Notes under the pieces: generated by a model
Databases searched by the model: none
What the model saw: only the letters and a program-made list of their open reading frames with translations
What the model was told of the DNA's origin: nothing
Made by a program: the position numbers and the translations under genes
Source of the DNA: an uncultured bacterium
GTDB taxonomy: Bacteria > B130-G9
Length of the DNA: 33,344 bases
Direction of reading: 5' to 3'
Assembly: GCA_965372715.1 (NCBI GenBank)
Contig: CBDVDH010000044.1
Coordinates: 1-33,344 of the forward strand
Shown: positions 17,485-27,969 of the stretch, one piece after another
Layout of the letters: the number at the start of each line of letters is the position of its first letter
Numbering within the stretch: the first letter of the stretch is position 1

Positions 17485-20400
17485 CTAGTGGAGCTCAAAT
17501 GGGGTTACCCAGATGTCGGTGACGGGCGAGAGGGCGCCTGGCCAGCAAAAGGCGGTGTAGAACGTGTATGTCCCGGGCGCGAGCGAGCCTTCGAGAACGA
17601 CATCGATGAACGTGAGTCCTTCTGGACAGTAGTATCCGGGCAGCGGGCGCCATTCTATCGGCGTCAGATCAACGCCAAACCCCGGCAGGCACAGCATCTG
17701 GCCGTCCGGCAAGACGACCACCGCGTAAAGGTCAACGTCAACCGGCTCTCCGGGGTTGTAGCAATAGAAATCGGCCGTGAGCCGGTCGCCGGCGTGGAAA
17801 TCAGCGACGTTCACGAGAATAGCGGCAGTTGGGGCGCCGTCGCTTGGATAGCTCCCGACGCAGTTCGAGACCTGCGACCAATTGTTGGAATCGTCAACCG
17901 CTCTGATCGCGAAGTAGTAATACGTTCCGGGCGCGAAGCCCGACACAACGAACTGCTCAGCGGAGCCGCTCGTCCGCGGCGTCCAGGAAGTCGAATCGCC
18001 GTAAATCGTCGCGGCAGGCCAGCTTGTCTCATTGATAGGGGCGGCGCCGAACCTAAGCTCGTAGCCGCTTGCGGTTCCGAATCGACCGTTATCGCCGGTC
18101 GCGGTGAAGCTCAGGAGTATCTCGCCCGCGTTGAGCCATTTTCTGGCCGCAAGGTCGTATATCGGCGATGGCGGCACGGTTTCGCCGGTCGGCGTCGCGG
18201 AGGCCACATTCGACATCCGCGAGCCGTTGCTCGCCTCGTCGTAGGCCTTAATTGCGAAGTAGTGGGTCACGTTCGCGGTGAGGCCAGAGACCGCGAACGT
18301 CTCTGTGCTTCCTGCCGGCTGCGGCATCCAGAATAGAGAAGGCTCGTATAACGTAGCGCTCGAGAAGGTGTCCGCTGTGATCATCGACAGCGAGTAGCGC
18401 AGCTCGTAGGACGACGCTGTGCCCTCGATGCCGCTGTCGCCCGTGGCGGTGAATCTCAACACGACGGAGTTCTCGCCAGCGGTCGCGGAGAGATTCTGTA
18501 TAGAGGACGGCGGAACCGCATCGCGGCCCGCTGTAGCTGAGTCGCAGTTTGAGACCTCCGATTGGTTTGAGCCGTCGTCAAACGCCTTGAGCGCGAAGTA
18601 GTATGTTCTGCCGGAGACGAGGCCTGAGATCGTCTTCAGCTCCCGCTGTCCCGCTTCAAGTGGGGTCCAAGTGAGCGAGGGTTGATACGTCTCCACGAAC
18701 GCCCAGTTGGTGGCGCCGATCTCAAACTCAGCGTATTTGAGGATGTAGCGGATGGCGGTACCGATGTTTCCATCGTCGCCCGTCGCAGTCCAGGAGAGGA
18801 TCAATTGACCTTCCACCTCACCGTCCTGGCCAGCGAGGTCCTCAATTCGCGCAGGCGGCACTTGGTCCTGACCGCCGCCGGCGGAGGCGCAGTTGGACAC
18901 GGCCGACCAGTTGTCCGCGTCATCGACGGAGACCATGGCGAAGTAACACGGTATGCTGGAATCGAACCCGGAGATGACGAACGATTCGTCGGCGCCGGCC
19001 GTCTGGGGGACCCATTCAAGGGAGGGCGCATAGACCTGGGCGGCGTCCCAGGCGCCCGCGTTGATGAATGATTCAGAGTATCTGAGCTCGTAGCTGACGA
19101 CTGTGCCGACGGTTCCGTCGTCGCCCGGCGCCGTGAAACTCAGCGTTATTTGACCCTCGAACGGCCCGGAAACCGCAAGCAAGTCCTCGATTGCCGCCGG
19201 CGGCACATCATCTGACGGCGCCTCAGTTGAGGCGAGATTCGAGATTGACGAGGCATTGCCCGCGTCGTCGAAGACCTTGAGCGCGAAGTAGTATGCGGTT
19301 TCTGCGCCCAAGCCCGTCACCGTTCTCTGCTCCTTGACTCCGGCTTGCACGGGCGTCCACGAGGTTGATGGCCCATAGAGCGTCACGGTGGAGAAATCGG
19401 ACGCGTCAAACGGCTCGGTGTGGTATCGCAGCTCGTAGCGAGCCGCCGTGCCGGAGCTGCCGTCATCGCCCGACGCCGTCCAGCTGAGGTCGCAGGTTGT
19501 GGGGGTGTCGGCGTCCCGTTGAGCCGAGAGGTCCTCGACCCTTGCTGGCGGGACATTGTCGTCCCCCGAGCCAACGAACATCATCTCGACCGTTGAATCC
19601 GCGAGGTTGCCTCCGCCGTCGCGAGCATAGACGCTGAGCTCAACTATGCCCTGGCCGCTGTATGACACAGGAAGGTCGTTTGAATAGACGAAATCACCGG
19701 CACGGAGGTCCCCGTGCGTGCCGTCGTCGTAGAGCTCGGTGTCCGTCTCGCCGCCAATCGGGAGCAGATTAGCAGTTACGGAGGTTATGTTGCCGCGGCC
19801 ATCCTTGTGGACAGCGCACACGCAGAACAGGACATCAACTTCCCCGTTCGTCCCTGGCGCCGAGTCAACCACAGCCGGATATGACAGCGCGTAGGCTATT
19901 TCAACGATCGAGCTGCCGCCGCTCTCACGGACCGAGCGCTGGGTCGTGCCCACGTCAACGGTCGCCTGAACAAGCTCGCCCTGCGAGACGGTGAAATCGC
20001 CCGATTGGGGCACGAACAGAGTTTTGAGGTCATCATCGCCACCGGAGAAATCCTCTACCATGAGGTAGAACGTGCCCGGAGCAGGAAAGAAGCTCACTCT
20101 TCCCGAGGCGCCCAGGCCTCCCTCGTTCTTTCGGCCCAGGTAGAGGTCGTCGTCCGCGAAAAGATAGGCCCTTGCCGACTGGAAAGCCGCTCCGCTCTTC
20201 TGAACGGTAACTTCCACCTCGTTCTCTATGAACGTCTTTGTGATGCTTATGGATTCGGCCGCCGAGAGCCAGACGAGGCGCTCGCATCTCGAATCCCTCG
20301 CATCGGCGCCAGATGTGAATTGGAGCCTGTATTGGCCCGGAGGCACGGTTAGCGTCCGCTGGCCGTCGTCGCCTACACCGTAGTCTGGGGTCGAGGCTAC

Positions 20401-22821
20401 CCATTTGCCTGAGCTTTCGTCGAAGACCTCGACGTCGCCGTTGCACGGGCCGTTTGTGTTCTCGATTCTTGCGTGGATGTATGCCGTATCGACAACTATG
20501 TCCCGGTCGAGGCTTTGTCCGCTTCCAAGCGAGACAGAAGAATCGAGGCTCTGCACGTGCGTCGCGCCGTCAAAGCCCTGATATGTCAGTTCGGCCTCGT
20601 ATTGGCCGGTTAGGAGCACATAGGAGCGCTCGCCCAACGGCAGTGCGCCAACGTCGGGGGGCATGCGCTTCGTATCGTCTTTGTAGAGCAGGCTCGTAAA
20701 ATCCTTGTAGCCGTCCGATGCCGGAACGTGAACGTAAAGCGAAAGACTGGTCGTAACAGGCCCCGCCGAATCGAACGTCGAAATCGTCAGCTGCCCTTGC
20801 CCCACGGTCTTGGAATGCTGCTTCCGCTGGCCCGCGGCGAGCTGTATCGGATAGTCGATGGGGTGCACGGCGATGCTGTTGGGATCGACATATTGGTATC
20901 GGAAGCTGAACGTTGACGGCATCAGGTTGAATGTGTGATCGCTGGCGGCAAGAAGCGGATAGCCGTCGGCCGCTGTCAGGAGCGTCCCCGCCGAGTTATA
21001 TATCCAAATCCTGCCCTCAGCCGAGCCGTCCCGGTCGCGCAGGTCAACCCAGATCGTGCCGTTGCCAAACGTAACGGTATCCGCGTCGCTCGCGCCCTCG
21101 GCCAGTGTGAATCCCCTCGTGATAACGCAGGCGTGAGGCGAGGACTTGTCATAGACATACTTGATGGTGTATGTGCCCGCCGGGACATCCCACTCCTGAA
21201 ACCCGTCGTCGCCTACGCCATAGCGCGTGGTCTCCTCGACGAGGGTCCCAGTCTCCTCGTCGTAGATCGAGGCGCCGCCGTTGCACGACCCACTGGCGTC
21301 GCGGAGATAGACGCCCAGCGTGCACGAGTCCGTGCCGCGCTCAAAGTTCAAGAGGTCGAGCGCGTATGAGTTCGCCTCCAGGTCGTTGGCTTCGATGTCG
21401 AAGAAGAACCGCTCAATTGGATCGCCCTCTTGAGGCGCGAAATAGACCTGAACGATGTATGTGGCTGGGATGACGTTATCGAACGAGCAGAGGCCGCCTC
21501 CGTGGGCCAGCGCGCTCGCCACCGCGTCGCCTGTGTCCTGATTGAGAAGGAACGCCGTCGCGGAACTGGCGGGGACGCTCTCGCCATCGTAGCGGACCGT
21601 GAGCGAGAGATCGCTGCCCCGCTCGACGGCGATCTGTAGCGTTTCAGTTGCGCCAGCCACAAGTTCCCGGCCAACGAGGAACCACGTCTTCGAGGGCTCA
21701 ACGAGCGAGTTCTCGACCTTGACGCTCACGCTGCCGGCGGGGACGTATCCGAAATCGACGATACCTCCAGCCCCGGGGGATTTACCCTCGTCAATCGCGT
21801 CGAAACTCGGGTCGTGTATCAGCGAGAGCTTCACAGCGTCATCGACAATTGGCGTTCCCGCGGAGTCCTTCACCTCGCAGCGCAGCCTCGCGACCTCGTC
21901 AAGAAGGATCGGGAGATTCACGCTAACGTCCGCCGGCGCCTCAAGGTCAAAGAAATATCGCTCCAGGCTCACAAGGCCGCGGTTATAGACGACCTTGACT
22001 TTGTAGTAGCCTGCGACTACTTCGCCAAAGTCGGCCCTGCCGGAGCCGTCGCACAACAGCGCGTCAACGACCTCCGAAAACGGCGCCGATTGGTGCGACA
22101 AGAAGACCGTCGCCGAACCGGTCAGCGCTCGACCGAATGAGTCGGAGACAGTGAACATCAGGCCTGAACAGAGCGGTATCTCGACGCGCCTCGTCTGGTT
22201 CGAGTTCGGCTGAACCACGACGTCGAACGTGTGAAATCCGCCTTCGGGCCGAATCGACCAATGCCGCACCTTCGCGGAGTATATGCCCGGAACCACCTCA
22301 TCGTAGCGCGCCTCGCCCAGACCGTCGCAGCGAACGCTGCCAACGAGATTGCTGGTGATCTGATCGTAAAGATAGACGTCAATGAGGCCGTCCGGAACGG
22401 AGCCCGCCTCAGACCGAACCCGTATTCTGAGATCTCCGCTGGAGCGGAAACTGATGGAGTCCTGAACGTCCTGCCCCGGGCCGACGACGATGTGGTGCTT
22501 GAACTTGACCACGACCGGCTGCGCGCGCACGTGCTTGACCCTGATGAAATAAGTGTTGGCGCCTAGGCCCGAGAAAGTCAGCTTGCCCTCGTCGTCCGTC
22601 ATGATTCTGCCAGGCGGGTCCTGAAACGACAGGCTGCCCTCGACAAACAGCGCGCCCTCCGCGTCGTCCGTAGAGACAGGACCCAAATCGTCAAGAACTG
22701 TCAGCTCGATACTCGCGGCTGCGGCGTCCGAGACAAATGCCAATGAGCTGCTGCAAACCAGAAGCGCAAGCACGATAATCGCTTGCGGCCAATTCCAGGC
22801 CTCTGAATTCGTATTCCTCAT
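17485..22821 (-). CDS. Large secreted multidomain protein: signal peptide, beta-sandwich repeats, DDGxxGD motif, 5 FN3-like repeats, C-terminal domain
   Basis: 1778-aa ORF with a Sec-type signal (…FVSDAAAAS). It has five repeats of VPPxxIxDL...WTAxGDDG..GTA..YELRY...YYFAxxAxD..N.S..SN, and LYDDGTHGDLRAGDFVYS. Confidence 0.88.
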   Translation of the reverse strand: MRNTNSEAWNWPQAIIVLALLVCSSSLAFVSDAAAASIELTVLDDLGPVSTDDAEGALFVEGSLSFQDPPGRIMTDDEGKLTFSGLGANTYFIRVKHVRAQPVVVKFKHHIVVGPGQDVQDSISFRSSGDLRIRVRSEAGSVPDGLIDVYLYDQITSNLVGSVRCDGLGEARYDEVVPGIYSAKVRHWSIRPEGGFHTFDVVVQPNSNQTRRVEIPLCSGLMFTVSDSFGRALTGSATVFLSHQSAPFSEVVDALLCDGSGRADFGEVVAGYYKVKVVYNRGLVSLERYFFDLEAPADVSVNLPILLDEVARLRCEVKDSAGTPIVDDAVKLSLIHDPSFDAIDEGKSPGAGGIVDFGYVPAGSVSVKVENSLVEPSKTWFLVGRELVAGATETLQIAVERGSDLSLTVRYDGESVPASSATAFLLNQDTGDAVASALAHGGGLCSFDNVIPATYIVQVYFAPQEGDPIERFFFDIEANDLEANSYALDLLNFERGTDSCTLGVYLRDASGSCNGGASIYDEETGTLVEETTRYGVGDDGFQEWDVPAGTYTIKYVYDKSSPHACVITRGFTLAEGASDADTVTFGNGTIWVDLRDRDGSAEGRIWIYNSAGTLLTAADGYPLLAASDHTFNLMPSTFSFRYQYVDPNSIAVHPIDYPIQLAAGQRKQHSKTVGQGQLTISTFDSAGPVTTSLSLYVHVPASDGYKDFTSLLYKDDTKRMPPDVGALPLGERSYVLLTGQYEAELTYQGFDGATHVQSLDSSVSLGSGQSLDRDIVVDTAYIHARIENTNGPCNGDVEVFDESSGKWVASTPDYGVGDDGQRTLTVPPGQYRLQFTSGADARDSRCERLVWLSAAESISITKTFIENEVEVTVQKSGAAFQSARAYLFADDDLYLGRKNEGGLGASGRVSFFPAPGTFYLMVEDFSGGDDDLKTLFVPQSGDFTVSQGELVQATVDVGTTQRSVRESGGSSIVEIAYALSYPAVVDSAPGTNGEVDVLFCVCAVHKDGRGNITSVTANLLPIGGETDTELYDDGTHGDLRAGDFVYSNDLPVSYSGQGIVELSVYARDGGGNLADSTVEMMFVGSGDDNVPPARVEDLSAQRDADTPTTCDLSWTASGDDGSSGTAARYELRYHTEPFDASDFSTVTLYGPSTSWTPVQAGVKEQRTVTGLGAETAYYFALKVFDDAGNASSISNLASTEAPSDDVPPAAIEDLLAVSGPFEGQITLSFTAPGDDGTVGTVVSYELRYSESFINAGAWDAAQVYAPSLEWVPQTAGADESFVISGFDSSIPCYFAMVSVDDADNWSAVSNCASAGGGQDQVPPARIEDLAGQDGEVEGQLILSWTATGDDGNIGTAIRYILKYAEFEIGATNWAFVETYQPSLTWTPLEAGQRELKTISGLVSGRTYYFALKAFDDGSNQSEVSNCDSATAGRDAVPPSSIQNLSATAGENSVVLRFTATGDSGIEGTASSYELRYSLSMITADTFSSATLYEPSLFWMPQPAGSTETFAVSGLTANVTHYFAIKAYDEASNGSRMSNVASATPTGETVPPSPIYDLAARKWLNAGEILLSFTATGDNGRFGTASGYELRFGAAPINETSWPAATIYGDSTSWTPRTSGSAEQFVVSGFAPGTYYYFAIRAVDDSNNWSQVSNCVGSYPSDGAPTAAILVNVADFHAGDRLTADFYCYNPGEPVDVDLYAVVVLPDGQMLCLPGFGVDLTPIEWRPLPGYYCPEGLTFIDVVLEGSLAPGTYTFYTAFCWPGALSPVTDIWVTPFELH

Positions 22822-22955: not shown

Positions 22956-23301
22956 TCAAGCACGTTGACCTCTGATTCGCACCGCACCAGGTGTGATCAC
23001 TGTAAAATTGTGAGCCAGTTCATCGGCATGTTCTTGCACAGCAATTGTCACAACCTCAGCTTTACGTTCCGGGGATAGACCTGACAAGCGCATCAATACA
23101 ACCCCGTGAGCCACGCGTCCCTGTCGAAACACCAATTCCCCAAAATCCTTGTCCGCAGTCAAGACTAACGCTTGCTCTTCTCACCACATCCTCATCCGAA
23201 CTGCTCGGCGCCATCTCGATTACGTTGAGGACACAGTGACCACCGTCTCTGAGACGGTCAATGATTGGCTTATCCACATTTTCGTCGGCCAGGAACTTCA
23301 C
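22956..23301 (-). pseudogene. Frameshifted DUF5615/VapC45-like PIN toxin
   Basis: MKFLADENVD...SDEDVVRRA in one frame continues as ALVLTADKDFGELVFRQ...GVVLMRL in another, with the shift at about 23172. The GTG start overlaps the DUF433 stop (GTGA). Confidence 0.85.
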
Positions 23302-23534
23302 TGGACCTGTTCGGGCATCGGATAAACCACATCCGCCCTTAACGCCTCCGCGGCGAAGGCAAGGGCCGCTTGGATAGCTTCGCGGGTCAGCCTGGGATGA
23401 GCCTCAAGAATCTGCTCAACTGTCTCTCCGGCAGCGAGCTTCTCAAGAATCAGCTCAACTGTAATGCGAGTACCCGCAACCACTGGCTTGCCCATCATGA
23501 TCGACGGGTCTGATTGGATAATGCCTCTGTCCAT
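23298..23534 (-). CDS. DUF433 family antitoxin
   Basis: IQSDPSIMMGKPVVAGTRITVELILEKLAAGETVEQILEAHPRLTREAIQAALAFAA. GAGAGG precedes the ATG at 23534. Confidence 0.92.
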   Translation of the reverse strand: MDRGIIQSDPSIMMGKPVVAGTRITVELILEKLAAGETVEQILEAHPRLTREAIQAALAFAAEALRADVVYPMPEQVQ

Positions 23535-23574
23535 ACCTCTCATCACCTTGGTCCCGCTCAATGTTCTCTCACGC

Positions 23575-23718
23575 CTATTGAAAAGGCAAAACTACCACAT
23601 CTTTCTCACAAATATCGCCAAGCCTCGTCGTCATCCGATCGTAGCCAGTTTTTCTTAAGAGAGACTTCGCTTCCGATCGAGGTCGTATCCATCTTCCAAC
23701 GCCCGGCAGCCTGGGCAC
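23575..23718 (-). pseudogene. Fused TA remnants: HicA-like N-terminal stub, DUF2281-like C-terminal fragment, MazF/PemK-like N-terminal stub
   Basis: MPRLPGV (23698-23718), MDTTSIGSEVSLKKNWLRSDDDEAWRYL* (23606-23692), and (M)AIFVR/KDVVVLPF (23575-23621, 1-nt shift). Confidence 0.6.
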
Positions 23719-23720
23719 AA

Positions 23721-23918
23721 CTACCCTACCTCTACGTAGAGCGACTGCTGGCCTTTGCTTAGCTCCTCAGCAGTCCCCAAGTACGCTTCTATTGCGTCCT
23801 TGATGTTCTCCAAAGCCTCGTCTTGGGTCTGTCCCTGCGACCAGCAGCCCGGCAGGCCAGGGACCCAAACAGCATAGCCCTCTTCCGTCTTCTTGAGACT
23901 TACTCTGTCCCCTCGCAA
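23721..23918 (-). CDS. hicB: HicB family antitoxin (short form); start uncertain
   Basis: LKKTEEGYAVWVPGLPGCWSQGQTQDEALENIKDAIEAYL. Confidence 0.88.
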   Translation of the reverse strand: MRGDRVSLKKTEEGYAVWVPGLPGCWSQGQTQDEALENIKDAIEAYLGTAEELSKGQQSLYVEVG

Positions 23919-23954
23919 GCCAGAAGTTGATCGATACGAGAGCTCGCTGTCGTC

Positions 23955-24176
23955 TCACAGCAACTCAGGGAATTCCTCAATGGTGAGGCCAGAATTGCGG
24001 ATTAGGACCCGAAGCGTTCCAACAGACAGTTCTCTGTGCTGGGGAATCGAGAGGTTGGCCCTCACACCGGGTTTGACCATCACCATGTGACTACCAACTT
24101 GGCCAAGCCGCGCCCAGCCGGCCTTTTCAAAGGCTTTGGTAGCATCCCTGCCTGATATGTTCGCCAACAGGGCCAC
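23955..24176 (-). CDS. hicA: HicA family toxin
   Basis: LANISGRDATKAFEKAGW...QVGSHMVM...LSIPQHRELSVGTLRVLIRNSGLTIEEF. The GTG start lies 4 nt after the upstream hicB stop. Confidence 0.9.
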   Translation of the reverse strand: MALLANISGRDATKAFEKAGWARLGQVGSHMVMVKPGVRANLSIPQHRELSVGTLRVLIRNSGLTIEEFPELL

Positions 24177-24180
24177 AGGG

Positions 24181-24396
24181 CTACACTGACACGACGATGG
24201 GTTTCTGGCCCGGCCCCTGCGACAACGTGGCGGCTGCCTTCTGGTCCTCGGCCCACAACCAGGCAATGATTGCTTCTTTGATGTTCTCCAGGGCTTCCTT
24301 TTCGTCCTTGCCCTGAGAGACGCACCCGGGAAGCGCCGGACACTCCACAACAATCCAGCCATCTTCGGCACGCTCGACTGTAACGTGAAAGATCAT
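24181..24396 (-). CDS. hicB: HicB family antitoxin (short form)
   Basis: MIFHVTVERAEDGWIVVECPALPGCVSQGKDEKEALENIKEAI. GGAGGG RBS upstream. Confidence 0.9.
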   Translation of the reverse strand: MIFHVTVERAEDGWIVVECPALPGCVSQGKDEKEALENIKEAIIAWLWAEDQKAAATLSQGPGQKPIVVSV

Positions 24397-24409
24397 AGCT
24401 CTGACCCTC

Positions 24410-24616
24410 CTATTGTATGGCAGGCAAAGTCCCGTTGTCATTCGCCTGCTTTCCCAATGACGTGACGTATTCGAGAAAACTCACTCCTTCGAGCTCCGCC
24501 TCTCTGGCAATGATCTTCCTCCCGATATGGACCTGTTGCAGGGACCGATCCTCAGGGAACTCCGCCTCAACCGTCCTTCTTATTGCTTTTGTTTCTTCTT
24601 CTGCGATTGCGCTCAT
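24410..24616 (-). CDS. Small hypothetical protein within the TA cluster
   Basis: 68-aa ORF (EFPEDRSLQQVHIGRKII), co-oriented and tiling the gap between neighbours, with GAGAG upstream. Confidence 0.6.
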   Translation of the reverse strand: MSAIAEEETKAIRRTVEAEFPEDRSLQQVHIGRKIIAREAELEGVSFLEYVTSLGKQANDNGTLPAIQ

Positions 24617-24654
24617 ATCGCACTCTCTATCTACCGGTGACAGTGTCGTTCAAC

Positions 24655-24858
24655 TCACTTCCGTGACTGGTGCTGAGCGATTAGGCTACGAACCTTGGGA
24701 ACCAATGCATAGGGGATCTCCATAATGCTCTGGCCCTGCTGTTCGCATGCTGCTTCATCTTCAGCCACGGCCTGCTCTTCAGTCTGATGCTCATAATGAG
24801 CTAACACCCGACGGACTCGCTCTTCGTCCCATCCGGGTGGGAACCTGCTCTCCTTCAC
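24655..24858 (-). CDS. Small acidic hypothetical protein, putative antitoxin
   Basis: MKESRFPPGWDEERVRRVLAHYEHQTEEQAVAEDEAA...IMEIPYALVPKVRSLIA. GAGG precedes the GTG at 24858. Confidence 0.7.
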   Translation of the reverse strand: MKESRFPPGWDEERVRRVLAHYEHQTEEQAVAEDEAACEQQGQSIMEIPYALVPKVRSLIAQHQSRK

Positions 24859-24924
24859 TTGTCTTCCTCTCTCTTGCCGCCCGCGACACAATCCGCAGAT
24901 TCTCTGTATCCCTCTTTCGAGAGA

Positions 24925-25089
24925 CTATACGTTCTCTTGCCCTTTCGCAAGAGCCTGAATGACCCCAATCCGCAATCTCGCCCGGGGCTCGCCCTGCAAG
25001 CTGGAAACAATGGAGCCAGTCAGCATATACTCGATGCCCGCACGGTCAAGCGCCTGCACAGCCCATCTCAATAGTTCCTGTTGTGACAT
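24925..25089 (-). pseudogene. Truncated nucleotidyltransferase-type toxin (MenT-like N-terminus)
   Basis: 54-aa ORF not in the ORF track: MSQQELLRWAVQALDRAGIEYMLTGSIVSSLQGEPR, then unrelated residues and a stop. It overlaps the 3' end of the upstream gene. Confidence 0.75.
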
Positions 25090-25283
25090 TTCTCCAGCCG
25101 CTCAAAGTATATCTTCTTTATCTCTTCATCCGATTTGTCGGGGAATCTCTTTCGCAGCTCGTGCAAGAATAGCCCTCGAACGAACTCAGACAGCTCGAAG
25201 CACTTGAGCAGCCTCGCCTCGGGTGACATGGAGCGAAGTATCTGAATATACAGCTTGTGATTCGGACGCTTTTTTATGTTCAT
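25068..25283 (-). CDS. Rv0078B (MenA1)-like antitoxin
   Basis: YIQILRSMSPEARLLKCFELSEFVRGLFLHELRKRFPDKSDEEI. It overlaps the start of the nucleotidyltransferase fragment. Confidence 0.7.
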   Translation of the reverse strand: MNIKKRPNHKLYIQILRSMSPEARLLKCFELSEFVRGLFLHELRKRFPDKSDEEIKKIYFERLEKCHNRNY

Positions 25284-25359: not shown

Positions 25360-25764
25360 TCACCTGGGCCTCAGTATCTCCAGCCTGACCTCGACCACGC
25401 CCGCCTCGAGCATGTCGATCTCTTTTGCCGCGCCCAGCGAAAGATCGATTATCCTCTTCTTCTTGTCCTTGAACGGCCCCCTATCGTTTATGCGCACGAC
25501 GACGCTCCTTCCGTTCTCCAGGTTTGTGACCCTGACCCACGTGTCAAATGGCAGCGTTCTGTGCGCCGCGGTCATGGCGAACATATTATAGGTCTCGCCG
25601 TTTGCCGTCTTGCGACCGTGGAACTTGCCGCCATACCAGGACGCGTAGCCGTGTTGAACGCCCTTCTTGATCTTCTGTGACCTGTGGGCGCAGCATCCGA
25701 GTGTGATGGATAACGTGAGTATGACGGCTAGTGTGCGGCAGAGCTTTGCGCCTTGCTTAGGCAT
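25360..25764 (-). CDS. rlpA: RlpA family lytic transglycosylase lipoprotein (DPBB domain only)
   Basis: Lipobox [40 protein letters not shown] and RIIDLS. Confidence 0.93.
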
Positions 25765-25872
25765 GATCACCCTCTCAAGAGCCTTTCGTAGCAGATATTG
25801 AGCAGAATACCGCCGAGCAATATGAAGGATTAGGCTCGGTTCTGCAACCTACGCGCCCGCGTGCCCGTATCG

Positions 25873-27369
25873 TCAGGTCGTGTCCCCTCTCCGCCCGAAT
25901 GAACCCCTGAAGAGGTATTTGAAGAAGGTCTTGGCGGCCTTCTTGGTCCGACTTATCTCGCTTGGATGTCGAATCATCTGAAGGGCCTTCCGAGCGATAT
26001 AGCTCGGCCTCAGGTAGAACTTCTGACGCGCCTCGTCACACCATTTGACCAGCTCCTCGCCCGAGAAGTCGACCGTCCTGACAACGCAGTTGTGCAAACC
26101 CTCGTCGGTCAGCCAGTCGGAGTATCTATCGACGGTCAGAAAGCCACCCGCCTGATACTCGTCGTAGAGCTCCGTCCCAGGATACACCATTATCGGATAG
26201 AACTGCGCGGTGTCGGGCGACAGTTCAAGGGCCAGATCAAGCGTTTTTTGCATCATCTCGCGCGTTTCTCCGGGCAGGCCAACCATAAAGCATCCGTGCA
26301 CCAGAATCCCCGCGCGCCTCGCGTCATCGGCGAAGGTGTGCATCATCTGAACCGTCGTCCCCTTGTGAATAGCATCCAGAAGCGCCTGAGAGCCGCTCTC
26401 GAAGCCGACGCAGACCATCCGGCACCCCGCCATCCTCATGGCCCTCAGTGTCTCGTAATCAACATCGGCGCGGCAGTTTGCTGTCCACGGAAACCTAATG
26501 CCACGCCTCTTCACAAGTTCACAGAACTCGATGCAGCGCCTCTTGTCCGCCGGCAGCGTGTCGTCCTCAAAGAATATCGATTTGGCGTTCGGGAAGTGCC
26601 TGATGACGTATTCCATCTCTTCGACAACGTTCTCCGGCGAACGAAATCGATAGCGCCGCCCGTGCATCGTCTGCGGATAAACGCAGAACGTGCAGCCGTT
26701 GGGACAGCCCCGGCCAGAATTGACCGTTACCATCGGATAGAGTGCGTTGGGGTTGAAATAGTCCTCTATCCGCAGGAATCTGTCATAAATCGGCGCCACG
26801 AAAGGCAGAGCGTCCAGGTCCTCGATTGGCTCTCTGCTTGCCGTCCTCACAAACTCGCCATCGTTGAGATATGCAACGCCCGGTATCGCGTCGAGCCTAA
26901 TCTCACCAGCGACCCATTTTGCCAAGTCCAAAACGGTATAATCGTATTCGCCGATGCAAAGCCCGTCGAGCGCGTCCGTGCTTCGCAGAGTCTCCTCAGG
27001 CCGCGCGGAGGGATGCGTCCCGACTGCAAAGACCCTGGTCTTGATCCGCGACTTGATCGCCTCGGCCACCTTGAGGTCGCTTTCGACGCTTGGCGTCACT
27101 ACATCCATTATCACCAGGTGAGGCGCAAAACCGGAGACCTTGTTGAGAACCTCTTCGAGCGCAATTCCCGTTGCGGGCGCGTCCCAGAGCTCCGCCTGAA
27201 CGCCTGCTTCCAGAAGAACGCCGGTCGCGTGAGCCAGCCAAATCGGGAAGTAAAGCGTCCCGCTCTTGGTTACCGCCGGGCTGCGCTGCGGCCGCGAGAA
27301 CTTCTTGAAATACGGCCCATTCAGCACCAGGACCCGAAGGTCATTAAGATTCTTCACATTCCTCTTCAT
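25873..27369 (-). CDS. B12-binding domain radical SAM protein
   Basis: N-terminal cobalamin-binding-like region (PIWLAHATG, VGTHPS, GEYD), then GRGCPNGCTFC, FEDDT, VGFESG and FMVGLPGET. Confidence 0.9.
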   Translation of the reverse strand: MKRNVKNLNDLRVLVLNGPYFKKFSRPQRSPAVTKSGTLYFPIWLAHATGVLLEAGVQAELWDAPATGIALEEVLNKVSGFAPHLVIMDVVTPSVESDLKVAEAIKSRIKTRVFAVGTHPSARPEETLRSTDALDGLCIGEYDYTVLDLAKWVAGEIRLDAIPGVAYLNDGEFVRTASREPIEDLDALPFVAPIYDRFLRIEDYFNPNALYPMVTVNSGRGCPNGCTFCVYPQTMHGRRYRFRSPENVVEEMEYVIRHFPNAKSIFFEDDTLPADKRRCIEFCELVKRRGIRFPWTANCRADVDYETLRAMRMAGCRMVCVGFESGSQALLDAIHKGTTVQMMHTFADDARRAGILVHGCFMVGLPGETREMMQKTLDLALELSPDTAQFYPIMVYPGTELYDEYQAGGFLTVDRYSDWLTDEGLHNCVVRTVDFSGEELVKWCDEARQKFYLRPSYIARKALQMIRHPSEISRTKKAAKTFFKYLFRGSFGRRGDTT

Positions 27370-27527
27370 GCAACGTCACCAACCTGTTTGAGGCGGGCTT
27401 TCTAGCCCGCCAAGATTCCCACCATAGAAACTGATTCGCGACAGCAACCTATAGCAAGGTGAGGATTTGGTCAAGCACGGCGTGGGGCCCCTAAAAATCA
27501 TATCGGGGCGAACGAAGAGGGTTTTTG

Positions 27528-27696
27528 GGAGTGCGGCGGCCTGACGCCGCTTTTCTTGGCGGTGACCTGGCACCGCCTTCTCAAGACTGCGTTATGAGCG
27601 GTCAGGTGGGTGATCTGGAAAACGCAAGATCATCGTTAGATCAGATGCCGCGTCAGGCCGCAGCAAGTGAAAGCGGTGCCAGGTCACCGCACTCCA
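27528..27696. repeat. GGAG-type REP-like composite inverted repeat (4 palindromic units)
   Basis: GGAGTGCGGCGGCCTGACGCCGCTTT ... GCGGTGACCTGGCACCGC ... GCCGCGTCAGGCCGCAGC ... AAAGCGGTGCCAGGTCACCGCACTCCA. Confidence 0.75.
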
Positions 27697-27969
27697 GAGC
27701 ACCCAACGGGTGCAAGACGCATCGCTACTGTATCCAACAAGAACAGCCCTTTGAACGGCTCAAGCGACTTCAAGATATGATGTCAGCGACCGTCAATCTG
27801 ATTTTTCGGGGGGGAGGAGTTCTCGATAGAACAGAGACTCATCCTCTCAAGAATTGTCGCTTGACCGTTTGAACTCGAACGTTGAACCTTTGGGTTTGAG
27901 GGCCTAGCTGGTCGGAGGCTTTTGCGAGTATTCAACCTGAGACTTAGAACGCGAAACCGGAAGCTGCGA

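Follow-up and report, generated by a model that had tools for sequence, protein, structure and literature searches.

A chromosomal toxin–antitoxin islet of an uncultured bacterium, probably part-way through toxin-first erosion

Introduction

Toxin–antitoxin (TA) modules of Photorhabdus cluster in small spots, some of which are "TA islets" without mobile-element genes (Belot et al. 2026, Mol Biol Evol, PMC13617665). In the part of that report available to us, pseudogenes are counted as the toxin alone in 185 copies, both genes in 186 and the antitoxin alone in 8, and the authors read these numbers as decay in two steps, with inactivation of the toxin first and loss of the antitoxin second. Orphan antitoxins are also abundant: the accessible part of a survey of Klebsiella gives a median of nine per strain and names anti-addiction as one role that they may have (Horesh et al. 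NAR 2020, PMC7192599). Here we describe a run of TA genes and gene scraps at positions 22956–25283 of a 33,344-nucleotide stretch of DNA from an uncultured bacterium (GTDB lineage Bacteria; B130-G9; assembly GCA_965372715.1, contig CBDVDH010000044.1), which is designated as the window.

The source genome (G000, 112 contigs) was compared with six others (G001–G006), of which G001 belongs to the same genus. These seven genomes, all from one family, represent the phylum in the collection used. On the evidence below, the locus is probably a small chromosomal TA islet that occupies a permissive gap between rlpA and the gene for a giant surface protein and that is part-way through toxin-first erosion.

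Results and discussion

Broken toxins beside open antitoxins

The run extends over about 2.3 kb of the minus strand between rlpA and the gene for a surface protein of 1778 amino acids (aa), and comprises 13 co-oriented genes or scraps, namely the pieces of seven TA modules and the tail of a methyltransferase gene (Table 1). The only whole pair is hicB1–hicA1. A first-pass annotation, made from the letters of the sequence, had placed the pieces correctly in strand and coordinates but counted about 11 and overlooked the methyltransferase tail.

Table 1. Features of the TA run and its conserved flanks, in order of transcription.
Feature	Position in window	Strand	Evidence
rlpA (septal lytic transglycosylase family)	25360..25770	-	Pfam DPBB_1, E 3.8e-27; NCBIfam TIGR00413, E 9.6e-48
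Rv0078B-like gene, 71 aa, open, orphan in antitoxin position	25068..25283	-	27 full-length relatives; Pfam sub-threshold
Nucleotidyltransferase (NTase) toxin stub, codons 1–37 of 188	24979..25089	-	NTase hidden Markov model (HMM) built here, E 3e-17; comparison with 17 intact partners
Class I S-adenosylmethionine (SAM) methyltransferase, C-terminal tail, about 34 last codons and stop	24855..24959	-	HMM built here, E 1.9e-15
orf67, 67 aa, GTG start (24858), open	24655..24858	-	Unannotated family, usually just downstream of a DUF4258 toxin
orf68, 68 aa, open	24410..24616	-	Unannotated family, usually just downstream of a 152-aa PIN toxin
hicB1 antitoxin, whole	24181..24396	-	Pfam HicB_lk_antitox, E 1.1e-6
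hicA1 toxin, whole, sole intact toxin of the array	23955..24176	-	Pfam HicA_toxin, E 1.7e-11, positions 1–58 of 58; no internal stops
hicB2 antitoxin, 5' end damaged	23721..23918	-	Pfam, E 6.6e-10; alignment to G001
hicA2 stub, 7 codons (VPRLPGV)	23698..23718	-	Aligns with start of intact 70-aa hicA after hicB2 in G003 and G004
MazF-partner antitoxin tail, C-terminal 25 codons	23606..23683	-	tblastn against intact pair on contig C38, E 0.001 genome-wide
Possible MazF/PemK-like start, 19 codons then stop (weak call)	23575..23634	-	By-eye resemblance to C38 MazF N-terminus; position
DUF433 antitoxin-type gene, whole	23298..23561	-	Pfam, E 2.1e-24
DUF5615 (PIN-like) toxin, frameshifted	22956..23301	-	Two Pfam half-matches in different frames, E 1.3e-7 and 9e-9
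Surface protein, 1778 aa, fibronectin-III repeats, conserved downstream flank	17485..22821	-	Pfam fn3, E 1.8e-16

The toxin is broken or absent in six of the seven modules, and the antitoxin is broken in two, in both of which the toxin is broken too; a whole toxin beside a broken antitoxin occurs in none of the seven. Counted as whole genes, this gives one of seven toxins and five of seven antitoxins (Fisher p = 0.10), or six of seven antitoxins if hicB2 is scored as whole (Fisher p = 0.029). The excess of broken toxins that was noted at the outset stands, with p = 0.21 by Fisher's test on the count made then (toxins whole 1/5, antitoxins 4/5). At full length, the toxins account for 62% of the combined coding length of these modules. 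Given such borderline p values and seven modules, the window alone decides neither way.

The same bias recurs elsewhere. The 71-aa Rv0078B-like gene has 27 full-length relatives in many phyla, and at their loci the NTase partner is whole in 17 cases, broken or absent in nine (one of them being G001) and interrupted by the end of a contig in one; when seven close NTase homologs were instead found through the toxin, the full upstream partner was present at all seven and the toxin was split at one. A broken toxin lies beside a whole orf67 homolog at 3 of 12 orf67 loci. A census of HicAB in G000 gave nine HicA profile matches plus a weak one, and 15 HicB matches. Whole HicB genes adjoin a broken HicA at no fewer than three places in this genome (C44, C5 and C22, the C22 stub being judged by eye), five more whole HicB-like genes have no trace of HicA, and there is one solitary truncated HicB. 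Next to each full-length HicA, the antitoxin position is taken by a small gene. Because the Rv0078B-like/NTase, DUF4258/orf67 and HicAB modules all display this pattern, the asymmetry is general to decaying TA modules and not specific to the site.

Content of the interval in seven genomes

The interval downstream of rlpA differs in content in all seven genomes, with the flanks kept (rlpA in all, and a homologous surface protein in G001, G003 and G006). G001 is collinear with the window at about 90–93% identity; the flanks reach 93–98% and the relic region at 23550–23850 just 73–81%. Two deletions in the window are seen relative to G001, one of 11 bp within DUF5615 and one of 47 bp at hicB2. 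G001 has lesions of its own: orf67 is short of 5 bp in its invariant FPPGW region, and a 2-bp insertion close to the hicB2 end frameshifts the C-terminus. An 88-bp segment of the window corresponds to 1009 bp in G001, which hold a DUF4258 gene (E 1e-19), an MqsA-like zinc-finger gene and a whole methyltransferase gene. orf67, orf68 and the Rv0078B-like gene are orphans in both genomes, which also share the hicA2 stub and the MazEF relic. Apart from that 2-bp insertion, the lesions are ordinary small deletions.

The other relatives carry subsets of these pieces. G004 possesses the Rv0078B-like gene, a whole methyltransferase, a whole hicB2–hicA2 pair, a second methyltransferase tail, DUF433 and DUF5615; G003 has hicB–hicA only; G006 has a methyltransferase/orf67 scrap followed by an orphan DUF433 gene, its PIN partner being gone; and G002 has a methyltransferase scrap only. 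G005 has no array, a converging gene lying 148 bp beyond rlpA. From these differing subsets we infer that an ancestor already had most of the array and that each lineage has since reduced it in its own way. The interval is a TA hot spot of variable content, and what the relatives show is net loss. In the tree of Rv0078B-like copies, those of G000, G001 and G004 group together as one clade that spans two genera (Shimodaira–Hasegawa-like approximate likelihood ratio test, 94), and the NTase breakpoints differ among the three genomes; this clade fits one old acquisition and three different NTase deletions.

A possible order of events

We propose that several unrelated type II TA modules gathered in the ancestor of the phylum, oriented like the flanking genes, and that each lineage then lost parts of the array by short deletions, in part between direct repeats. 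The first surviving lesion would nearly always hit the toxin, because loss of the antitoxin is harmful while the toxin is active. The antitoxin would drift afterwards and be lost later, so that at a given moment many broken toxins would lie beside antitoxins that are still open, most of which would have no present function. Damage to antitoxins is visible as well: hicB2 is affected in both G000 and G001, orf67 is broken in G001, the antitoxin of the MazF relic is down to 25 codons, and orf68 has altered near-invariant residues.

The individual modules

The 71-aa gene scores below the gathering cut-off for Pfam PF18993 (Rv0078B), with an E of 0.026 and 15 bits against 27.1. Its initial description as an intact Rv0078B-like antitoxin therefore holds for its open frame and for its position as an NTase partner, but not as a Pfam match. 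A 188-aa NTase that starts within the 3' end of the small gene is next in 17 of the 27 loci, and the small gene lies upstream of all seven close NTase homologs; the full-length partner matches Pfam PF10706 (E 1.8e-5) and DUF6036 (E 4e-4). As first described, the window toxin is cut after about 37 residues. The stub stops short of the conserved HDIDL motif, and its frame continues to a stop at 24925. By hand count, 27 of its 37 residues are identical to an intact homolog, which suggests that the toxin was lost recently. Over 25054–25160, which takes in the end of the Rv0078B-like gene and the NTase start, the contig depths summed for four metagenome runs rose to as much as 138, far above the single figures of the adjoining bins; other organisms in those samples evidently carry the module widely.

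The methyltransferase gene that follows is whole in G001 (171 aa) and G004 (178 aa; Pfam Methyltransf_31, E 2.6e-23). In the window all but the tail is deleted, and DNA homology to G001 begins at 24959. In G004 (C80; L013 3282–4465), hicB2–hicA2 is flanked by the whole methyltransferase gene and a second copy of its last ~50 codons, and the pair may have moved in or out with a neighbouring piece by homologous recombination.

orf67, which had been put down as a putative orphan antitoxin, is a true orphan, and so is the adjacent orf68, which had been left as hypothetical. Their DUF4258 and PIN partners are wholly absent, HMM searches upstream of each window gene having found no remnant. The orf67 family has at least 2722 homologs of 65–70 aa, including archaeal ones, and no Pfam domain was found in them. 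An FPPGW motif near the N-terminus is invariant in the family alignment, and window orf67 retains all 24 invariant columns. A 94-aa DUF4258 toxin (Pfam E 8.7e-9) lies directly upstream of the orf67 homolog with a 4-bp overlap at 6 of the 12 loci; the toxin is broken at three others and absent from the remaining three, and orf67 itself is truncated in one of the toxin-less loci. Since the family usually follows a DUF4258 toxin with this overlap, it is likely to be an unannotated antitoxin family. The predicted model of orf67 has three helices, with a predicted local distance difference test score (pLDDT) of 79 and a predicted template modelling score (pTM) of 0.36. Foldseek found nothing in the PDB for this model at E up to 10, the sequence profile gave only a chance WW-domain match in the PDB (E 0.71), and the named clusters of the ESM Atlas gave no usable match. 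In viral contigs, one weak locus was found with a single sequence and one with an alignment. Among five genomes reached through the loci, orf67 was present in one, where the gene upstream is a zinc-finger gene and not DUF4258.

The orf68 family, which is not in Pfam, has 69 homologs of 61–68 aa in bacteria and ANME (anaerobic methanotrophic) archaea. We inspected 17 of the 35 returned loci: a 152-aa PIN gene (Pfam PIN, E 2.4e-7) lies ~10 bp upstream of the homolog and is whole in nine and truncated in two, and six have none, two of these six being G001-like contigs. Three near-invariant residues are altered in window orf68. Judging from these neighbourhoods, the orf68 family likely serves this PIN subfamily as partner or antitoxin. 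The main new annotation from the locus is that both orf67 and orf68 likely represent antitoxin families missing from Pfam. Two unannotated small-protein families tied to toxins in this way (orf67 to DUF4258, orf68 to PIN) could improve the TA annotation of environmental genomes.

hicB1 and hicA1 are intact, as initially reported, and they resemble known type II HicAB systems in that both match the Pfam profiles, adjoin each other in the same orientation and are open. The order is hicB then hicA, and both HicB proteins of the window are short (64–72 aa), longer HicB proteins carrying an added DNA-binding domain. The second hicB had also been called intact, which proved incorrect: a 47-bp deletion between two ACAGAGT repeats removed the ATG and the Shine–Dalgarno ribosome-binding site, and an in-frame TTG alone is left. 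hicB2 is a paralog of hicB1 (direct repeat D1, 71% identity). After it comes the seven-codon hicA-like stub already recognized in the first-pass annotation. It can be aligned with the beginning of the intact G003 and G004 hicA genes, but a stub of this length is beyond the reach of statistics (HMM E 4.7). A 47-aa frame at 23575–23718 was considered as a degenerate full hicA2; the HMM matched profile positions 1–14 only (E 4.7), for which reason the three-piece parse of this segment was kept.

Three near-identical HicB paralogs were also seen in G000, at C6 6178–6396, C17 14243–14461 and C13 50613–50789. Of these, the one on C17 alone is preceded by a HicA-like gene (Pfam E 5.8e-5). The C6 paralog is solitary, and that on C13 is cut down to 58 of 72 aa.

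The next relic was matched to an intact pair on contig C38 of G000, which consists of an antitoxin without a Pfam match and, after it, a PemK/MazF toxin (E 3e-6). The antitoxin tail in the window is the genome's best non-self match to the tail of the C38 antitoxin (44% identical over 25 aa; 60% for the G001 copy), and its N-terminal part is deleted. It had been labelled a DUF2281-like tail; that it is a broken antitoxin tail is borne out by the C38 match, and the DUF2281 label is not, the C38 antitoxin having no Pfam match. The MazF-like stub proposed at the same time, which overlaps the tail, resembles MazF by eye only, with no match in Pfam.

DUF433 followed by DUF5615 is a pair that we take to be a TA system, and it is intact in G001 and on contig C19 of G000. 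DUF433 is whole in the window and the PIN-like toxin is frameshifted, both in agreement with the initial calls (DUF433, Pfam E 2e-24). The halves of DUF5615 lie in two frames owing to an 11-bp deletion near 23171, and one TGA lies inside; the G001 copy is intact at 118 aa. Between G000 and G001, the synonymous rate dS of DUF433 (23298–23561; L011 3952–4200) is 0.78, against 0.06–0.19 in its neighbours, and the non-synonymous rate dN is just 0.04. The history of this segment seems to differ from that of its surroundings, e.g., through allelic replacement by recombination. Gene conversion from a paralog was considered and rejected, as blastn against the G000 genome found the window copy only.

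Genomic setting

rlpA, the upstream flank, was matched in all six other genomes of the family. Pfam matches for 20 open reading frames (ORFs) of the window identify the remaining genes as flagellar genes, radical SAM enzymes, a signal peptidase and similar. No terminator-like site was found inside the array. An NCBIfam scan of the TA pieces found nothing near any curated cut-off (all E at least 0.045), and an Rfam scan gave no match at E up to 0.1. The spacer at 27300–27900, between divergent radical SAM and MiaB-like genes, is ~39% alignable between G000 and G001, its flanks being at least 95% identical, and a convincing ORF was seen in neither genome.

Erosion and its alternatives

The ratio of dN to dS (omega) had been suggested as a check on the orphans, and it gave a mixed result. 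The Rv0078B-like gene and DUF433 look constrained: omega of the former is 0.20 against G001 and 0.04 against G004, with dS saturated in the G004 comparison, and that of the latter is 0.05–0.11 in all six pairwise comparisons, including those with the orphan G006 copy (0.06–0.11). Omega of hicB2 is 0.52 between the orphan copies of G000 and G001 and ~0.05 against the G003 copy, which has an intact hicA. orf68 differs from its G001 copy by 0 synonymous and 4 non-synonymous changes, leaving omega undefined, and orf67 (frameshifted in G001, a scrap in G006) gives 0.26 over the shared part; hicB1 gives 0.27 against G001. All G000–G001 values are based on 4–18 substitutions per gene. Against a profile of paired copies, orphan Rv0078B-like genes score a median of 133 bits (n = 12) and paired ones 148 (n = 22; Mann–Whitney p = 0.022, uncorrected for kinship).

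Several of our observations weigh against erosion as the whole explanation. The asymmetry in the window is borderline (p 0.03–0.21 depending on the count, n = 7 modules), and the G000–G001 omega values have the narrow basis just given. G000, G001 and G004 all retain an open Rv0078B-like gene, with NTase breakpoints that differ and an omega of 0.04–0.20, and DUF433 stays at 0.05–0.11 even in G006, where the PIN partner is missing. Five toxin-less antitoxin-type genes side by side are a high density. Moreover, the lesions specific to G000, i.e., the 11-bp and 47-bp deletions and the NTase/methyltransferase joint, lie outside any close independent contig.

Given that the Rv0078B-like gene and DUF433 look constrained, some of the toxin-less antitoxins (these two, perhaps also orf67 and orf68) might have been kept and expressed under selection, either for anti-addiction against the toxins of incoming plasmids or phages, a role proposed in print for orphan antitoxins (PMC7192599, in the part available), or as regulators; the array would in that case be more than debris and act as a working collection. 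The single clade of the Rv0078B-like copies, the completeness of the invariant columns in window orf67, and the co-orientation of the pieces behind rlpA with no terminator-like site among them would all suit such retention. Nevertheless, three of the five orphans are decaying in one or both sister genomes, the orphan Rv0078B-like copies fit the family profile less well than paired copies do, and nearly everything is lost in G002, G005 and G006. A low omega over long paths may also predate the loss of the toxin. We consider selective retention unlikely on balance. The stronger proposal in the first-pass annotation, that the run is an antitoxin library rather than simple decay, is not upheld, because the orphans decay too, the relatives show net loss, the asymmetry is general, and two-step decay has already been published.

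A more specific version, which we hold to be improbable, is that the toxin-less antitoxins are partly kept as a co-transcribed immunity set that is read from rlpA and that toxin erosion itself builds. If so, the Rv0078B-like gene, orf67, orf68 and DUF433 would disarm the NTase, DUF4258 and PIN toxins of plasmids, phages or TA-based defence systems. For the anti-addiction idea, Saavedra De Bast 2008 is also cited; if the orphans that look constrained (the Rv0078B-like gene and DUF433) neutralize foreign toxins, the locus would be a useful test case for it.

It is very unlikely that the lesions are artefacts of assembly or strain mixture, i.e., that the 11-bp deletion (at 23171), the 47-bp deletion (at 23908) and the NTase/methyltransferase joint (24959–24979) are consensus errors or chimeric joins in a metagenome-assembled genome. 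G000 is indeed fragmented into 112 contigs, and no independent contig of high identity covers the lesions specific to it. No public run was found with the window at an identity of 99% or above (the share of sampled words reached 0.20 at best), and no run recorded as RNA holds the window stretch. However, the independently assembled G001 is collinear over the whole array, and salt-marsh contigs reproduce the G001 form; G001-like contigs carry the 11 bases in DUF5615. A cold-seep contig that is 98.4% identical over 23334–23903 has the same junctions between hicB2, the hicA stub, the antitoxin tail and DUF433, and then an intact hicB2 start. G000 and G001 also have in common the hicA2 stub, the MazEF relic and three orphans (the Rv0078B-like gene, orf67 and orf68). 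Deletions of 11 and 47 bp are, in addition, unusual as short-read consensus errors.

An integron-like array, in which a site-specific recombinase would have taken up promoterless cassettes at a single attachment site, is hardly credible: the small genes are co-oriented and densely packed as in integron cassette arrays, and chromosomal integrons often carry TA cassettes, but, as was noted from the start, neither an integrase nor a transposase was found by Pfam among the 20 ORFs of at least 150 aa in the 33-kb window, the array holds no attC-like repeats, no family of repeated imperfect inverted repeats between the pieces and no Rfam match (its sole notable repeat being the hicB1/hicB2 paralogy), and the breakpoints fall within genes instead of at cassette borders.

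Comparison with known systems

Toxin-first erosion of a chromosomal TA islet is thus the reading that we favour, and both toxin-first decay and abundant orphan antitoxins are already published, so that the locus alone opens no new question. Its value is that of a clear natural snapshot of the breakup of a chromosomal TA cluster in a barely sampled phylum, with nested deletions that can be ordered across seven genomes.

The orphan antitoxins surveyed in Klebsiella (PMC7192599), to the extent described in the part available, likewise lack a working toxin, some of them in the context of a degraded pair, and anti-addiction, cross-talk and regulation are given as their proposed roles. Here, five such genes lie side by side rather than scattered, and they are known from their sequence alone.

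The closest match is with the TA islets of Belot et al. (PMC13617665), for which the available part of the report describes unrelated type II modules in a small spot between conserved genes, an absence of mobile-element genes, content that varies between relatives, loss by truncations and small deletions, and pseudogenization of the toxin alone or of both genes far more often than of the antitoxin alone. The window likewise combines clustered unrelated modules, variable content and toxin-biased pseudogenes with no recombinase or transposase nearby. Those islets belong to Photorhabdus, a member of the Gammaproteobacteria, and were studied with functional assays, whereas ours comes from an uncultured phylum and is known from genome data only. 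Compared with the islets as they are described there, the one in the window is further eroded, a single module of its seven being whole.

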